Origin: Bilabrum cf. latius
Lineage: Eukaryota
DNA length: 64,000 bases
Assembly: GCA_965178125.1 (NCBI GenBank)
Contig: OZ237763.1
Span: 124,001 to 188,000 of the forward strand
Direction: 5' to 3'
Shown here: piece by piece, positions 32,095-48,600 of the stretch
Numbering within the stretch: the first letter of the stretch is position 1
How the letters are laid out: each line of letters opens with the position of its first letter
Program-made: the position numbers and the translations under genes
The notes under the pieces: model-generated
What the model was told of the DNA's origin: nothing
The model's database searches: none
What the model saw: the letters and a program-made list of their open reading frames with translations, nothing else

Positions 32095-34508
32095 TTACCT
32101 AGACCCAGCGCCAGCCCCTTTGCCAACGCCCGCACCCGCACCCGCACCCGCACCCGCGCTCTCCTCCCCTCCTTGCCCCTCCCCCCCCTGTGGCCCTTCG
32201 TCCCCGTACACCTTCATGTCCGTGATGCCCAGGTCATCGTCCTCCTGCTGCGTCCTGTCATACCTCACCTGCACCAGCCGAGGATCCGCCCACCCGGGTC
32301 CCTCCTCCCCGTGCCCCTCCATCTCCATGTCCTTGCCCCCCTTCGGCGCTCCACTCGCCGGACCCTCCTCCCCACTGGCGCGAGCCGCGGCGATCCGCCG
32401 AGCCGCCGCCTCTTCCTAATAGGGCGAGTGCACCCACGAGTTGGCCATGGGGTCGATCACGCGCAGCTCGAAGGGCTCCTTGCCCTGGGCGAGGCCCTTC
32501 AGGCGACCCAGGAACCGCATCAGGTTGCTGCTCTTGGCGCGGTCAGCGGAATCGAAGCTGGCAGACTGGAAGGGGTTGCTGCTGTCGAGCTGCTCTGCGA
32601 TCTTCTCTAGCAACCCCTCCACGGTGGTGTACAGCCCGCCCAAAGTGCCGTGCTGCATCACGAGCCCAACGTCTGGCACCTCCACCAGCGCGGTGTCGCT
32701 CTTGATGACGTCCCTGCCCAGGTCAAGCTTGACGGCCTCGCCCACACTCATGGGCGTGCCGTCGGGGGCCAGTGGGGATCCAACCCGGGAGTCCAGGAGC
32801 TCAGCCAGACCCGCTACCGCGTCCGCTGCGGAACCGGCCGCCATGGCTGCCGCGGCGCCGAGCGGAGCCTCCGCCCCCGCGCCCCCCGAGGCCGCCTTGG
32901 CTGCCTCCTCCCGCGCCTTGGCCGCCGCCTCCGTCACCGCCCTGGCCCTGCGGACAGCCTCCTCCCCGCCCACGTACAGCACCTGCCTCGTGCCCTAGGC
33001 AGGGATGGCCCCGCCTCCCTTCACCTCCACCTCCCGGAACCCGCACTCGTCACACAGCATGGCCATGAGGATGACCTCCTTGAAGTGCGGCACGTCGGTC
33101 ACGCACATCTTGACGCGCACGTCCACGCCGCAGCTGGGGCAGGCGGACGGAAACGCCATGAGCTCCTTGGCCTCGGTCGTGCGGGAGCTGTCGAACACGA
33201 GGGCCTCCCAGCCGCTACCCTTGTTCCCTGAGGCCGTGGCGCGCGCGCGGTCCGTCTCCCCCCGGATGTTTCCTCCCGTCTTGTACCCCGACCCGGAGCC
33301 GCCCTCCCCGGTTGTAACCGCCTAGCTCCCCCGCATCAGCCGGGTGTCCCCCTCGATGTCGTCCTCGCCGCCATCGCCATCGCCCTCTCCCTCCCCGTGT
33401 TCCCCCGCGCCCCCGGCCCCGCCCGATGGTCTCTCCTGCGCCGCGCCTCCCTCCGGATTCAGCCCCGCACGCAGCATTTGTTCCCTGGACCTCCGATAGA
33501 AGGCCGCCTTGAGCCCCGGGTCGGGCGCGGGTGCCCCCGGGTTCTCCACGAAGCTGTTCCCCGTGATGTCGTCCAGCTGCAGCTTGGTGGGGAGGGCCCC
33601 TTCCTCGGCGGTGGCGATGGCCCTGAGGCGGTCGATCATCGACCCCACGGTGTCTGCGAGCGCAGGGTCCATGGCCCGGCGGACCGGCTGCTGTTCCTCG
33701 AGAGTCGAGGCGGCCGTGGTCAGGAGCCCCTCCACGGTGGTGAAGACGCCCTTCTGGGTGTTGGCTGGGATCTCGAAGGAGAGGGAGGGGATGGTGACCA
33801 CTGCCTTGTCGCCCTTGATAATCTGGCGGTCCAGGTCCTGCGGAGAGCGGCGGGCGGGATCGATGGAAAAGCGTGGAATGGAAGATAGCACGAAGTGCAG
33901 CGGCGCTCGGAAACAATCAAAAACCGGCGGCTTGGTTTCTCTTGGGTTGCTCAAGAGGGGCGGGATAGTTCCGCGCCTACCCTCCCATGATAGCTTGAAC
34001 GAATTCGCGCAGCTTTGTGGTGCTTGGATGCTGGTAAGCGACACGGCATAGGAGAGCAGCGCGAACAACCGTCGCGATGCAAATATTCTTGCCTTACATC
34101 CTTCGTGCGAATGGTCAGCTCGTACCGACACCCTTTCTCTTGGACTTCAGCGCTTTGAACCTCAGACGATCTGAATCCACACTCCTCGCACTTGAATGCC
34201 ATGAGAATTACGTCGCGAAAAAATGGAATCCGAGTGGGCATCACGCTTGTGATCCCATCGTCGCCACATTGCTGGCACAAAGACTTAAGCCGCATCACTC
34301 CATCCTCATTCGGATCGAATTCGAGTACGCCAGGCGAAGCTCCGGCACCCTCAGGTGCCTCCTCGTTACTGCCGGCAGCTGCAGATGAAGGGGCCGTGGA
34401 GTCGCCAGCGGACCCGGCAGAAGCACCGGCCTCAGATGACACTCGCGATGTTGCCAATTCTCCAATATCTCTAAACACTTCTTCCTGCCCATCGCCACTA
34501 GAAGCCAT
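32095..34508 (-). CDS. ZPR1: Zinc finger protein ZPR1; exons 34508-34098 and 33837-32095; TAG at 33322, 32995, 32416
   Basis: Two C4 zinc fingers (CQQC..IPFFRDVILMAFKCEECG; CPSC..VPHFKEVILMAMLCDECG), each with an A/B domain (TTVEGLL). The conserved C-terminal DPRLVQVRYDRTQQEDDDLGITDMK lies after the third TAG. First non-TAG stop is TAA at 32095-32097. Confidence 0.93.
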
Positions 34509-34647
34509 CGTTTCGCTGGCAGACACTGAAAAAGGTCTCACCAAGGTGTTCCTCTTCGGTGTGACGACTACATACGGTTGCAACCGGCTCCCGCCACCAG
34601 GGATCTCCTCGTGTGTGCCATTCGGTCCAACAGCCAGTCTACAGGGG

Positions 34648-37642
34648 ATGTTTGTGTTTGTCGAGGTAAGAATAATTGAAGTTTGAGTATATTTTTGTTC
34701 ATTTGGATTGGTTTGGTCTAGATTTCGGCTGAGTGAAGGCCGCAGAATCCATCGAACGCTGCGCTTTCCGTGACAAGTGAAGGAACATGTGGCAGGCTTA
34801 GACCTTGAAGGGAACCTGTGAAACGGCAAAGATGCAAAACTGGATTTGTTTTCGATGGCATTTTGACGGGAGATTGGCTCGCACCATCTGCCCCATGCCC
34901 GCAAGATGGTGCATCCGAGTTGATGTTGCTGTTGGCCCGCACAGCGTCATGCCCATTGGGCATCCCCCGCCGCCTTCCTTTACGTCTGCAGCAAGTGGCA
35001 TAGTAATCACGCCATAAATTTTATTCACAAATAATGCATCTTTTGATTCGTCGCAGGGTCTCGGCGAATCGCTGTCCCAGCTGCAGCTGCCATCCACGGC
35101 ATCTGTCAGCGAGCTGCGGTGCGCGGTCGCGTGCGCTGCCGGTGCCCCCCGCGCCGGAGACGTGATCGTGTCCGCCGGCGGAAGGCCCATCGTGGGCTCT
35201 TCCCTGGCATCTGCCGGCGTGCGAGCCGGCGATTTCATCCAGGCGCGCCTACGGATCTGCGGCGGCGCGCAGACGGCCGTACCCGGCATGGCGGTCAGCG
35301 CGCAGCCCCCCGCTGCGTTCGGTGGGCCCGCGGGAGGCGCTTCCCAGGGTGCCAGCGGTGTCACGGGCGCCCCTTCCGCTGGACCCGCGGGCTCCGCCGC
35401 CCTGACGGGCGGTGCCCCCACTGCCCCCCAGCGCGTGGCGCTGTACGTGGGCGACCTTGCCCCCGCCGTCAACGAGCGCACGCTGCACCAGCTCTTCTCC
35501 CAGGTGGCCCCCGTGCAGAACGTGCGCGTGATCAGGCACCACATCACCCGGCAGTCCCTGGGGTACGCCTACGTGAACCTGCACTCGACCGCGGACGCCG
35601 AGCGCTGCATCGACATGCTCAACTACTCGTCCCTGGAGGGGCGCCCCATCCGCATCATGTTCAGCAATCGGGACCCATCCAAGCGCAGGAGCGGCAAGGG
35701 CAACCTCTTCATCAAGGGGCTGCCCCCGTCCTTCAACTCCAAGGACCTCCACGACTTCTTCCAGGGGTACGGCTTCGGCGAGGTCGTCTCGTGCAAGGTG
35801 GCCCTGGATGAGCAGGGCAGGTCAAAGTGCTACGGCTTCGTGCAGTTCGCCAACGACTCGGACGCCACGCAGGCCATCGACAAGGCCAACGGGATCCGCC
35901 TGGAGGACCACGTGATCACCGTGGAGAGGTACCGCTCCAAGGCGGAGAGGGGCGCGGCCACGGCCTGGAACAACGTGTACGTGAAGGACATCCCCAAGAA
36001 CATGGGCGCAGAGGCGCTCAAGGGCATGTTCTCGCCCTACGGCGAAGTCAACAACGCGGTCGTCATGACGGACGCCGAGCAGAAGTCCAAGGGCTTCGGG
36101 TTCGTGTGCTTCAGGGACGGCAAGGGGGCCCGCAAGGCGGTCATGGCCCTGCACGGGAAGCTCCTCCGTGACCCGGAGGTGCCCGACGCCGAGGTGGCAG
36201 GGCAGGAGAGCGTGGAGCAGTACGAGAAGGAGCTGGAGGGTGCCCTCAAGGGATTCAGGAGGGAGCTGCAGGCCGTGGATGACCCCGAGCTGGCGGCGCA
36301 GATCATCGAGGAGAAGAGGGCGAGGGCGGCTGGAAAGCCCACCCCGGCGGCCAAGGAAGGGCCCGAGGAGGACGAGGAGGAGCAGAAGAAGGCGTCTCCG
36401 GCCGCGGGCGCCGCAGGAGGGTCTGGGGCGGCCGGGCCCAGGAAGAGCAGGCGGACGGCCAGGACCGTGACCACCGCTGCTGCCGCGGCCACCATCGGCG
36501 TGCCGCCGGAGGAGACCACGGTGATCCGGCCCCCCCGCGGGTACAAGAGGCTGTACGTGGGCCGCGCCCTCAAGAACGCCGATCGGCAGAGGCAGAAGCA
36601 GGCGCGCAAGGAGAGGGAGAGGGAGATGAGGGTCAAGCAGCTGGCCGGCCACAGCGTGTACGTGCGCAACCTGGACGAGTCCGTGGACGAGGACACTCTG
36701 CGGGCCGAGTTCCGTAGGTTCGGTACCCTGACCTCTGTCAAGGTCATGCGCGACAAGACGGGGCGCTCCAGGCTCTTCGGGTACGTGGGGTTCACCTCGG
36801 CGGAGGACGCGATGGAGGCCATCCGCAACATGGCGGGCCGGCTGCTCTACGGCAAGCCGCTCTACGTGAGCCTGTGGCAGCCCAGGGAGCAGCGGAGGGC
36901 GCAGATCGAGCGCGCGAGGAGCGTGCAGATGGCGCAGGCGGAGTTCATGCGCCAGGCGCAGATGATGGGGGCGGACCTGTCCTCCCCCGAGGTGCTGCAG
37001 GCGGCCGTGAATTTCTCCAGGATCGCCATGGGCGGCATGCCGGGCATGGGCATGGGCATGATGCCCGGCTTCGGGATGGGCATGGGCATGGGCGGCATGG
37101 GCATGGGCGGCGGGTTCGGCATGATGGGTGGCATGCGGGGAGGACAGGGCTTCACGCAGGAGCAGATGGCGATGATGCAGCAGCAGCAGCAGGCGCAGGC
37201 GGCTGCGGCGCAGCAGGCCCAGGCCCAGGCCCAGGCCGCTGCCCAGCAGCAGGCGCAGGCGCAGCAGCAGGGCGGCCAGGGGCAGCAGCAGGGCGTGGGT
37301 TTCTCCGGCCAGGGGCAGCAGCAGGGCGGCATGGTGGGCGGCCCCGTGGTTCCCCAGGCCCCTGGGATCCAGGCCTCGGAGCTGGCCAAGCTCAAGCCGG
37401 AGGAGCAGCGGCAGCAGATCGGCGAGAGGCTGTACCACATGCTGGAGCCCTCGCAGGGCCCACGCACGGGCAAGATCGTGGGCATGCTGCTGGGCATGGA
37501 GGTCACCGAGCTCATCAACCTCCTCGAGTCTCCCGATGTGCTGGCCGAGCAGGTGCAGCAGGCCAACGTCGCCATCGACCAGCAGTCGGACGGCGGGAGC
37601 GCGGCGGCCAAGGCCGACCCCGCCAAGGCCGGGCCCCAGTGA
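34648..37642 (+). CDS. PABPC: Cytoplasmic poly(A)-binding protein (4 RRM + MLLE) with N-terminal ubiquitin-like domain; exons 34648-34665 and 35057-37642
   Basis: LYVGDL...SLGYAYVN, GNLFIKGL, NVYVKD..SKGFGFVCF, VYVRNL; MLLE motif QRQQIGERLY...GKIVGMLLGM. Proposed first exon ATGTTTGTGTTTGTCGAG|gtaag. Ends TGA; no TAG. Confidence 0.9.
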
Positions 37643-38247
37643 GCGAGCAGGCGCACTCTGCATGGGCCCAAAGATGGGGCTGGCGCTGTGACTAAGTCGG
37701 GGCTGGATCGCTGTGCATGCGGGGGCGGGGATGTGGCGCGGGCCGCCCCCTCGTGTATGTCCCGTGTGTGATAGGAGAAGCAAGGATCGGAGGATGATCA
37801 TAGATAGAAAAGAACAGCACCATGCTGGACCGAATGCCGCGGCGGTGGTGATGCCACTGCTTGAGGTGGGAAGTAGGAGGGAGAAAAGGGGGGCGAGGAG
37901 CGACTTTGCCTCTTCAAGTTGCTGCTAGTATTGCAAGGTGAGTGCGTGTCTACGGGAAGTTTCCGCGACACGGGTCTCTCGCTGCATGCATGCCGCATCG
38001 GATGCTTCTTCCTTGCTGCGGGCAGGGCTCTCCGCCTCATGCTGCGGATGCCAGATTGTAAAATGAATTGATGGGTGCAACAAAATCGTTCGAATTATGC
38101 TAGACTGCAGCCCGCGCCCGTTGGTGGGCCGGTGCACGTCGCCAGCGGTGCGCGCAGTGAAGTTTCAGTGCAAGTGCATCCGGATTCTACTGATCTGTGC
38201 GAATGACATCGTACTCGTTCAACCGATGAAAGAAAGAGAAGATAGAA

Positions 38248-45645: not shown

Positions 45646-48600
45646 TCAGTCACCACTGCCAGCAGAACCGCTGGAGAGGCGCGACCTCGAGTTGCGGCGC
45701 ATGCCCTTGAGCCCCTTGAGAGACGAGGGGCGGGCAGCGGCAGCGGCGGCCATCAGAGAGGCGCTCTCGGATCCAGCGGGGGCACCTGACCCGCCCGTGC
45801 CCGTGCCCGTGGCTGTCGTTGGATTGAAAACGCTCTTCCGCTGGCGGGAACCACGGGCGGCCTGGCGCGCTCTGCCGGCCCCGCTTCCGCCGGATGCCAC
45901 GGATGAGGCACGCATTGCGCCGGCACCCACAGTCTCAGCACCGGCGGCGTCCTTCTTCAGACCCGAGTTTTCGGCGCGCAGCTGCTCCACATGCTGCAGG
46001 AGATCGCCGTACGCGTTCCTGAACAGCTGCCAGGACGCCTGGTCGGGGGCCTGTTCCAGCCCGAGGATGCCCTCCGCCGTGGCGTCCAGCTGGGCGTTGG
46101 ACATGGCCTTCTTGGAGTCGGCGCCACCCGGGCGCTTCATCATCATCGGGTTGTTCTCAGTGGTGATCTTGTCGGTGCCGCCTGCCTCAGGGTCCGTTGC
46201 GGCAATCTGCGCGCGAGAATCCCCCCTGCCGCCGCCCTTGGTCTTGCCGACTGCCAGCTTCTTCTGCTTGTCGTCGTCGGCAGAGTTCTTGCACATCTCC
46301 ACAATGTCCAGGATTATGACGGTGCCGAAGTAGAGGAGCGTGCTCACCACGATGAGGATCACCAGGATGGTCAGCGTGTCGCGCTGGCTCTGGTAGAAGT
46401 CGCTGTCCAGACGGCCCGACTCAAACATGATGCCGGCCAGCACCACCATGATGGCGCTGAACAGCAGCACGGCCTCCACCGTGTTGTAGTCGAACAGGGC
46501 AGACCCGAACACCACGGAAGACAGACTCACGAACAGTGCGCGTGCGTTCGTCACATCCAGACCCTTGCTGAACGTGGCCCGCTTGCGACCCCGAGACTCG
46601 ATGCGCTGGATGTCGGTCCAGATCTGGTGGTGCAGTGAGGACGGATCCACGCGGCGGGTGATGTGGTCACGCACCACGGCGTCGCGGTCGCCAGGAGACA
46701 TGTACGGGTTGTTGTGCACGTGAGCCGAGTACGACAGGAACAGCACCAGCAGAGCCATGGACAGCTGGAACGCGGCGTTCTGCACGAACATGAGAGCCGT
46801 CAGGGCGAGGCCCAGCTTGCGGGCCAGGATCACCAGCACCCACGCGACGTAGTTGGGCGTGAACTGCATGTACAGCCTTGAGTACCTCTTGCGCATGAGC
46901 AAAGAGCCCTCAGTGGCGCTCGACTTGGTGTCACCGGTGCCCTTGGCACGCAGCAGCTGATCCGCCACGATGTCCTTGCGGTACATGAACAGGATGTACG
47001 TGGCCCAGGCGGGGAAGCCGATCACGTACACGGCCAGGGTCAGGATCGTGAACGGAAGCAGCGTGCGGTAGACGCCGCCCGGCTTGTTGCACGGCTCGAA
47101 CACGGCCTGGAAGTAGCGGATCACGTTCCCGTCCTCGTCGTACTCTGGCGGGTCAGTGGGCGTGCAGTTGAGAGCGTCGGCAGTGAGGCGCGCCAGGTTG
47201 AGATACAGCACGTAGAACATCACGCAGACCGCCTTGATGAGCATGTCCAGGTGGTCGGCAGAGTTCTTGAAGCCGTGACCCTTCACGCACCACGTGTACA
47301 GGAAGTAGACCACGAAGAACACGCCGAACAGCACCATCACAGCAGCAGGCACCAGCATGAGGAAGGCCCACTTGGTGATGTACCCCAGGTCAGGCACGAT
47401 GCACTCGGGGGCAGTGATCTCGAGGTTGAGGTTGAAGGCAGACAGCACGTGAAGCATCTCCCGGATCATGGGGGGCCATGACACGCGCGCCGATGCGAAG
47501 ATGGCCAGTGACTGCAGGTAGTCGATACCCGACGCAGCCAGCGCTACGTTGATGTCACGCTTGTTGATCCAGTACGCACCGAACGCACCTGCGATCACCA
47601 GAATCGCGAATGCGGCCATGAGGATCCACGGGTTGTCCGGGCACTCAACACACTGGCCCGCCTGCCTGTAGTAGCCGTCTGCGCAACTGCCGCATCGGAA
47701 CGACGGTGCTTCGGACTTGTAGGCAGCAGCGCACTGGTTGTCACCGATGCACGCGAAGTCAGGCTCGCACTTGACGATGCACACGTCACGGCCAGGCACT
47801 CGGTTGGATGCAGGGCACGCATCGGCCATGCCACTCGTGACAGAATCGGAAGAGTTGAGGTTGTACCACCCGGCCTGCGGCACAGGCATGGTGTGCACCC
47901 GCCTCGAGTCGTCGTAGCCCTGGCAGTCGGCACCCAGCGGGCACGGCACGCAATGCTCGCCTTCCACGCCGAATGCGCCATCATCACACGCGAAGAACAC
48001 GCCATCGAGCGGAGGTGCAGCCGGCACGAAGCCACTCTGCCCCGCTACCTGCAGCGACACGTTCTTGAAGCCCACGGTCATGTGAGGCACCGTGCAGTCG
48101 ATCTGCCGGGTGGTCTCTCCCAGCGGGTCCCCACTGCGGGGGAAAGCCCCAGGCACGCGAGAGACCTACACGCACTGGACACCGGCCACGGCGCCCACAA
48201 CCAGCCGCTCCTGCGCGGTCCATCCCTGCCTGTCAGCCAGCTCGGGGTCACCGTAGTTGTACCCATACAGGGCCACGGTGCGCCTAGGGGCGGATTCGGG
48301 CAGCCAGTAGGTGGCGTTTGTAGCTGCCTGCTGGCTCCGCCTCTCCTCCATGCTAGAGCCCCAGTTGTGGAGCAGGTCGGTCAGTGGCCGCTGCGTCTGC
48401 TCGTTGATGATGATTGCATTGCCGATCACGCCCTCGCCGTCAGCTGCGGCTGATAGATCGCGCGCATCCCGGAGCGCATTCCAGTAGTTGCCGAGCTCGC
48501 CAGGAGGAGACATGCGCAGCTGCTGGGGCACGACCCGGTCGATCCGCGGCGGGCGGTAGGCGAAGCGAAGCGTGTTGGACTCGGCATGCAGACCGCCCAC

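Follow-up and report, generated by a model that had tools for sequence, protein, structure and literature searches.

A Candidate FUBI-Like Leader on a Poly(A)-Binding Protein of Bilabrum cf. latius, Probably Descended From a Ubiquitin-PABP Fusion

Introduction

Is a poly(A)-binding protein (PABP) made behind a small ubiquitin-like (Ubl) leader in Bilabrum cf. latius, where would such a leader come from, and is it cut off? This question is raised by a gene on the forward strand of a 64,000-nt stretch of genomic DNA (contig OZ237763.1, positions 124,001 to 188,000; called the window below, and numbered from its first letter). A preliminary description had joined an 18-nt exon to a long downstream frame and read the product as 76 residues ending in Gly-Gly, followed by PABP. 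An N-terminal ubiquitin or Ubl leader on another protein is a known kind of arrangement. Nearly all ubiquitin fusion genes have one of two ribosomal proteins, eL40 or eS31, as the partner. The gene in the window lies outside the Ub-eL40, Ub-eS31 and FUBI-eS30 families, its partner not being a ribosomal protein; from the sequence comparisons given below, we read it as the descendant of a gene that fused ubiquitin to PABP, with a leader that now resembles FUBI.

Gene Structure and Transcript Evidence

The first exon reads ATG TTT GTG TTT GTC GAG and is followed by GTAAGA from position 34666; the intron ends in ...TCGTCGCAG at 35056, and exon 2 begins at 35057. In the frame of exon 2 there is an upstream TAA at 35015-35017, the first ATG is at 35288, and the frame then stays open until the TGA at 37642-37644. 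Since the TAA lies upstream and no ATG occurs between 35057 and 35287, the G+C-rich segment 35057-35287 can be translated only with a start from an upstream exon. The spliced frame has 867 codons with a single stop at its end and is laid out as a 76-residue leader ending in Gly-Gly, a 58-residue linker, four RNA recognition motifs (RRMs) and an MLLE domain.

Public sequence contigs of runs X1-X3 and X7 were mapped to positions 33800-36300; X4-X6, which contain small shares (0.09-0.10), were left aside. One contig each from runs X1, X2 and X3 (studies P1 and P2) carries the joint 34663>35055, reported as "skips 391, GT..AG, cut +2," which corresponds to 34665|35057, with 0 differing letters in any of the three; the depth in the bins of the PABP intron is 0 in X1-X3. 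A neighboring intron (33837-34096) is also spliced out in the X1-X3 contig sets. In X7, a DNA-like run of flat depth 16.8, the same stretch is present unspliced in one piece and the joint is not found. The two GT..AG joints and the empty PABP intron bins of X1-X3 are what RNA would give. The contigs have their 5′ ends at 34632 (X1), 34639 (X2), and 34634 (X3), with no loose ends, that is 9-16 nt before the ATG at 34648. An mRNA from 34632 has only two ATGs up to 35400, at 34648 and 35288, both in frame; the first AUG of the contigs is the one at 34648 and therefore opens the 867-codon frame. We concluded that the six-codon exon is spliced to exon 2 and that a single frame runs from the first AUG through the PABP. 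The splice and the 76 residues with Gly-Gly at 75-76, in frame with PABP, are thus as the preliminary description had them, with one adjustment: the acceptor that it placed at 35056 is the last base of the intron.

Similarity of the Leader to Ubiquitin

The joined 76 residues were used in the shuffle and hhalign comparisons, and residues 7-83 in the fold, Pfam and database tests. Laid end to end on ubiquitin without gaps, the leader is identical at 17 of 76 positions (22%) with no indel, and the identities include M1, F4, V5, L8, G35, P37, A46, G47, L56, L71, R72, G75, and G76. Scored ungapped against ubiquitin, the leader has a BLOSUM62 sum of +57, a value reached by 0 of 20000 shuffles (-72.6 ± 17.2). 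When compared by hhalign with 166 ubiquitin-family units, residues 1-76 aligned to 1-76 without a gap at a score of 26.9 (P 1e-4), against a mean of 9.4 and a maximum of 17.6 for 200 shuffles. In the PDB, phmmer had no match at E ≤ 0.001 other than polyubiquitin chains, which made up 3 of the 20 rows at E ≤ 10, and query residues 10-73 fell on ubiquitin residues 16-79, an offset of exactly the 6 residues contributed by exon 1. Five matches at E ≤ 0.001 were returned by a HMMER scan of 1.84 billion representatives; three belong to the ubiquitin family (a poly-Ubl protein at 1.8e-6, a di-Ubl protein ending in RMRGG at 4.8e-5, and a polyubiquitin at 5.9e-5), and the other two are bacterial repeat proteins, matches that we take to be compositional. 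The language-model neighbors, at 0.91, were ubiquitin/Rad60-SLD clusters.

The leader is not ubiquitin proper. Besides the low identity, it has none of Lys6, Lys11, Lys27, Lys29, Lys33, Lys48, or Lys63; in fact it has no lysine at all (0 of 76 residues), compared with 37 lysines among the 791 residues in the rest of the protein. Taken together, these comparisons argue that the leader is a far-diverged ubiquitin derivative, in register with ubiquitin over the whole domain, and that the sequence signal is real but weak for standard tools.

The predicted fold agrees with this assignment. With a 6-row alignment, AlphaFold2 modeled residues 7-83 at a predicted local distance difference test score (pLDDT) of 73.8, with the blocks in 11-60 at 82-84. 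Foldseek matched that model to a ubiquitin or Ubl fold in every one of its 50 listed rows (best TMq 0.72, best E 6.3e-3), and the VIA scan, which is independent of Foldseek, did so in all 50 of its own (Z 9.7 to 7.1). FUBI bound to USP36 (8bs3_B) ranks 10 and 14 in the Foldseek and VIA matches. Integral UBL domains stand at the top of the VIA list (1wx8, Z 9.7; the Rad23 UBL, Z 8.9), and the fold alone therefore does not decide between a cleaved and an integral domain. The alignment-guided model is, as a prediction, a β-grasp. The AlphaFold check for this fold suggested in the preliminary description thus came out positive for the alignment-guided model and was uninformative for a single-sequence model; its general claim of a ubiquitin-like leader is supported by the shuffles, hhalign, HMMER and phmmer, the language-model neighbors, and the fold matches.

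Two sub-threshold Pfam hits on the Ubl were set aside: PDZ_6 (E 0.0013, over 25 residues, with 18.9 bits where the cut-off is 27) and YukD (E 0.028), the latter a ubiquitin-like fold itself. In the ENA protein P0124 (1662 aa), Ala/Gly/Ser-rich Ubl units are repeated many times in tandem, and one unit is 33% identical to the window leader; this is another diverged ubiquitin-like repeat protein, Ala/Gly-rich and apparently eukaryotic.

The PABP Body and Its Relatives

The exon-2 protein matches Pfam RRM_1 in four stretches (E 7.1e-76) and MLLE (E 4.6e-18). Its best named database matches are polyadenylate-binding proteins, and it groups with the PABPs of other eukaryotes. Judged by domains and matches, the body is a complete cytoplasmic-type PABP (PABPC/Pab1 type) with four RRMs, a linker and a C-terminal MLLE, in keeping with the canonical PABP that had been described. 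It is a fast-evolving PABP: its end branch in a 44-row tree is 2.05, against a median of 0.29.

The two best matches of the PABP search are the metagenome proteins P0002 and P0003. P0002 starts inside ubiquitin, runs to ...LRLRGG and continues directly with Met and PABP. In P0003 a PF00240 Ubl stands N-terminal to the PABP; it has no Gly-Gly at the canonical place and a Gly-Gly at 80-81. A third protein, P0194, is encoded on a metagenome contig (L013) and has a complete ubiquitin, 93% identical to the standard unit, with LRLRGG leading directly into Met and PABP. Two related PABPs with a true ubiquitin at the same place and a third with a Ubl therefore indicate that the window leader is a decayed ubiquitin, and we regard this ancestry as the strongest evidence for a ubiquitin origin.

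Two motifs, R-H-x-I-T-R-Q-S-L-G-Y-A-Y and L/M-W-Q-P-K/R-E, are common to the window PABP, P0002 and P0003, and the counterparts in L013 are R-H-T-I-T-R-Q-S-L-G-Y-A-Y and L-W-Q-P-R-D; most PABPs differ at these two sites. In the 44-row tree, built from the PABP parts alone, the window protein, P0002, P0003, and P0194, together with one further protein, P0129, lie on one side of a branch with 98% support in the Shimodaira-Hasegawa-like approximate likelihood ratio test (SH-aLRT). A tree joining the window protein with P0002, P0003, and P0194 was not rejected (difference in log likelihood, delta lnL, 3.35; p value of the approximately unbiased test, p-AU, 0.262). The simplest reading of these sequences is that one ancestral ubiquitin-PABP fusion gave rise to three descendant states, in which the ubiquitin was kept, became a diverged Ubl with Gly-Gly (window), or became a Ubl without the canonical Gly-Gly (P0003). 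By this evidence the fusion is not unique to the genome under study; the fusions in relatives that the preliminary description had proposed to look for exist in P0002, P0003, and P0194.

A metagenome scan with generic PABP motifs kept 80 loci and left out 484 further confirmed stretches; ubiquitin was found in 1 of the 80 kept loci, that of L013. Among 164 proteins (the window open reading frame, 5 matches of the Ubl search and 158 PABP matches), 13 have at least 70 residues before the first RRM motif, and apart from the window protein only P0002 and P0003 were ubiquitin-like there by eye. A homolog search based on P0194 was dominated by polyubiquitins, and among the 120 rows listed only P0194 itself combines PF00240, PF00076, and PF00658, so this search says nothing on the spread of ubiquitin-PABP fusions. 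A cluster-atlas search with residues 1-260 of P0194 gave a best score of 0.76 and no ubiquitin-RRM cluster.

The ubiquitin of L013 carries the changes N25A and A28T (EAVKTKIQ), and the corresponding letters in the P0003 Ubl, ASVKTKIS, are much alike, a hint at shared descent of these two leaders.

Proposed Cleavage After Gly76 and Alternative Readings

As we read it, the gene encodes one 867-residue precursor. A Ubl of 76 residues, derived from ubiquitin and ending in Gly-Gly, comes first; a disordered linker follows, and then a complete PABP. The gene would descend from a canonical ubiquitin-PABP fusion, a form still found among related PABPs. Once it no longer had to work as ubiquitin, the N-terminal part would have drifted in this lineage to its present identity and lost all lysines, with its exact length, its core pattern, Leu71-Arg72, and Gly75-Gly76 retained. 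A ubiquitin- or Ubl-specific protease would then cut after Gly76, during or soon after translation, and free a PABP starting at Ala77 together with a lysine-less Ubl, as happens for Ub-eL40, Ub-eS31, and FUBI-eS30. On this reading the leader would act in cis, on the folding, solubility and yield of the precursor and in setting the N-terminus of PABP, and would be no source of ubiquitin.

In linear ubiquitin-X fusions, deubiquitinases cleave behind Gly76 except where X is proline. The window leader has the layout of cleaved ubiquitin and Ubl precursors: it starts at Met1, has Gly-Gly at the junction, and the next residue is Ala77, not Pro. The length of 76 without indel, the kept Leu71-Arg72 and Gly75-Gly76, the Ala that comes next, and the absence of lysine together make a FUBI-like profile, and we therefore consider a cut after Gly76 likely, with a probability of about 55%.

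A number of results pull the other way. Compared with ubiquitin, the leader carries the changes I36A, H68Q, V70R, and R74C; positions 36, 68, 70, and 74 of ubiquitin are deubiquitinase contacts, and the usual ubiquitin-processing enzymes may therefore not accept the leader. P0003 does without the canonical Gly-Gly, and an uncleaved leader may therefore be viable in this group. The domain itself escaped two tools: Pfam PF00240 gave no match to residues 7-83 at E ≤ 1, and tblastn of the window Ubl against the 80 related loci gave nothing at E ≤ 1 and missed the ubiquitin of L013 too. The single-sequence AlphaFold2 model of residues 7-83 has a pLDDT of 44 and is uninformative; the alignment behind the better model contains ubiquitin, so that this model passes partly by likeness, and it lacks strand β1. 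P0129, which falls on the same side of the tree, has no ubiquitin in its gene model, and this may reflect loss, a missed exon or long-branch attraction. On the transcript side, the short side of the joint is 32 (X1), 25 (X2), and 30 (X3) letters, and of these only X1 reaches the 31 letters per side that the tool takes as bridging; the sides in X2 and X3 are short because the contigs end there. The kind of run (RNA or DNA) was guessed by the tool, which flagged X2 as "probably DNA." The contig ends mark a minimal 5′ leader, and further transcripts starting downstream may exist. It was such transcripts, with translation from 35288, that the preliminary description had named as the case against its proposal; it finds no example among the three contigs, all of which include exon 1. 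Finally, the G+C content at third codon positions (GC3) is 0.79 in the Ubl against 0.91-0.97 in the body, although in the linker after Met84, which is certainly translated, it is 0.78 as well, so that low GC3 does not single out the leader.

The changed contact positions and the P0003 leader would both fit a Ubl that stays on the PABP as an integral N-terminal UBL domain of the Rad23, Dsk2 or parkin kind and tethers PABP to the proteasome, to UBA/UIM partners or to itself. We consider this the less likely outcome, though one to be taken seriously. The absence of lysine would spare an uncleaved leader from the chain building of the ubiquitin-fusion-degradation pathway; integral UBL domains lead the VIA list; and in TDP-43 an N-domain with a ubiquitin-like fold stands before RRMs, a TDP-43_N plus RRM_1 cluster having come up in the cluster-atlas search. 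Against it, the exact preservation of the Gly-Gly at 75-76, together with Leu71-Arg72 and the absence of indels, would serve no evident purpose if the domain stayed uncut; such domains as a rule lack a terminal Gly-Gly; and the two canonical ubiquitin-PABP relatives would be expected to be cut like any ubiquitin-X fusion.

It is also conceivable, and in our judgment improbable, that the leader is a decaying relic that most ribosomes or transcripts bypass, with PABP made from Met84 (ATG at 35288) and the Ubl frame translated little or not at all. The known 5′ leader is only 16 nt long, and short leaders favor leaky scanning; the context of the second ATG (G at -3 and G at +4) is better than that of the ATG at 34648 (G at -3, T at +4); and the extreme divergence missed by Pfam, together with the lower GC3, would fit as well. 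On the other side stand the presence of exon 1 in all three contigs with 34648 as their first AUG, the open frame without indel whose ubiquitin core pattern lies far above that of shuffles, and the equally low GC3 of the linker beyond Met84. The GC3 drop as such covers about the first 135 codons (35057-35440, Ubl and linker; 0.78-0.79).

The leader might also be a new, lineage-specific Ubl modifier or a regulated switch. A protease of its own would set it free, in the way that USP36 frees FUBI; either the free lysine-less Ubl would then be conjugated to targets, or the cleavage would gate the amount of active PABP. We rate this extension as quite doubtful; if it were true, the organism, which apparently reads TAG as sense, would have a direct tie between a Ubl pathway and poly(A)-dependent translation and termination. 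That there is no real Ubl, the frame being a chance product of G+C-rich DNA, which yields long open frames (and the Ubl has no Pfam match), or an assembly artefact, is highly improbable given the splice in three runs, the similarity statistics, and the ubiquitin at the same place in relatives from independent data sets.

Comparison With Known Fusions

The closest parallel to the precursor proposed here is FUBI-eS30 (FAU). A review (PMC8122580) describes FUBI as a protein of low identity to ubiquitin that retains the di-glycine, has no chain-forming lysines and is taken off eS30 before the latter is used. Both FUBI, as presented in that text, and the window leader are low-identity relatives of ubiquitin with a C-terminal Gly-Gly and no chain lysines, placed N-terminally on a protein of the translation apparatus; in the window the partner is PABP rather than a ribosomal protein, and the origin would be an independent one, from a ubiquitin-PABP fusion in a protist group. 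The same text reports a proposal that the ubiquitin leader of Ub-eL40 and Ub-eS31 is a cis chaperone (PMC8122580). These two fusions have a single N-terminal ubiquitin ending in Gly-Gly directly before the partner, and P0194 and P0002 have the same form with PABP; the window leader, unlike theirs, is no longer ubiquitin and cannot feed the ubiquitin pool. Integral UBL proteins (Rad23, Dsk2, parkin, Ddi1/2) share with the window leader an N-terminal β-grasp and supply its top structural matches; as a rule they lack a terminal Gly-Gly and are unprocessed, whereas the window leader has Gly-Gly at the ubiquitin positions. A diverged ubiquitin moiety in a ribosomal-protein fusion, reportedly described by Catic et al., is a precedent for extensive sequence drift in the ubiquitin part of such a gene.

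In protists, N-terminal ubiquitin fusions to unrelated proteins are on record in PMC6332867 for actin, P1/P2, NiSOD, and others, and the same text points out that such fusions are easily missed by gene prediction, the ubiquitin part being small or on its own exon. The leaders there are near-canonical ubiquitin, in contrast to that of the window, and none of the partners given in Tables 1 and 2 of that paper is PABP; its main text has 0 occurrences of PABP, polyadenylate, RNA-binding or RRM. No ubiquitin- or Ubl-PABP fusion came up in text searches of the literature, and none is present in the main texts of PMC6332867 and PMC8122580 (their supplementary architecture tables lie outside this statement); PABP as the partner of such a leader was thus not found described. 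PMC8122580 notes that translation factors or further ribosomal proteins, as fusion partners, might in principle provide the same link between protein synthesis and degradation, but that no such fusion became fixed. In the small protist group considered here, the leader sits on PABP, which is a general translation factor. The three leader states side by side would amount to a natural experiment on the role of a leader in cis once it is no longer ubiquitin and on the origin of FUBI-like leaders. With its leader on such a factor, the locus parallels FUBI and holds a lesson for annotation, as a six-codon first exon can hide a whole domain.

TAG Codons and Termination

The preliminary description had further speculated that the leader might be connected, through eRF3, with an altered termination system. 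A frame of 3618 codons on the minus strand (56502 to 45649) contains TAG in frame at four places (53676, 51435, 50289, and 48168), and TAA and TGA are absent from it up to the closing TGA at 45648. Its product has domains of the F5/8-type-C, cadherin and IPT/TIG types. TAG is thus probably a sense codon in this organism, as far as the frame can tell. The canonical ubiquitin-PABP frame of L013 ends in TAG, and the fusion therefore exists where TAG ends at least this frame and is not tied to the code change. Nothing here links the leader to eRF3, and we set the connection with altered termination aside as unsupported. The product of the 3618-codon frame also has, by eye, a hydrophobic C-terminal stretch, possibly membrane-spanning.

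Feature Coordinates and Additional Observations

The features of the locus are collected in Table 1.

Table 1. Features of the PABP gene and its divergent neighbor (positions in the window)
Feature	Position	Strand	Evidence
Minimal mRNA 5′ leader, 16 nt, no ATG	34632..34647	+	Contig ends of X1-X3 and ATG scan
Exon 1, coding, Met and 5 codons (MFVFVE), matching ubiquitin strand β1 (MQIFVK)	34648..34665	+	Sequence, joint; hhalign pairs Met1 with Met1 of ubiquitin
Intron, 391 nt, GTAAGA...CAG, phase 0, 48% G+C vs 72% in the next exon	34666..35056	+	Sequence, contig joints
Ubl residues 7-76; Gly-Gly codons 35261-35266	35057..35266	+	Similarity and fold comparisons
Linker, Ala/Gly/Pro-rich, residues 77-134; second in-frame ATG 35288-35290 (Met84, context CCCGGCATGG)	35267..35440	+	
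RRM1-RRM3; RNP2 starts 35441, 35705, 35975; Pfam's best stretch 35705-35917 is RRM2; end approximate	35441..36200	+	RRM_1, motif positions
Insert of ~155 residues, charged, Ala-rich, between RRM3 and RRM4	36182..36646	+	Largely absent from P0002 and P0003
RRM4; RNP2 36656, RNP1 36776; end approximate	36656..36880	+	Pfam, motif positions
MLLE (PABC)	37382..37567	+	PF00658, E 4.6e-18, residues 776-837 of exon-2 protein
Stop TGA	37642..37644	+	Sequence
First exon of divergent neighbor, ZPR1 zinc-finger protein; ATG 34508	34097..34508	-	PF03367, E 5.4e-21; contigs end 34507-34514; intron 33837-34096 joined in X1-X3

A separate 634-nt contig in X2 and X3 (depth 94 and 117) matches positions 36081-36114, a 34-nt segment around RNP1 of RRM3, with 2 differences and is unlike the window beyond it; it is probably another RRM gene of the organism and possibly a second PABP-like gene.

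The PABP gene stands head to head with the ZPR1 gene. Their ATGs are separated by 139 nt, and 117 nt lie between the ends of the transcript-like contigs (34514 and 34632). As these ends lie near both ATGs, both known 5′ leaders are very short, at least about 6 nt for ZPR1 and 16 nt for PABP. ZPR1 is linked to eEF1A, and both neighbors are thus translation-related.

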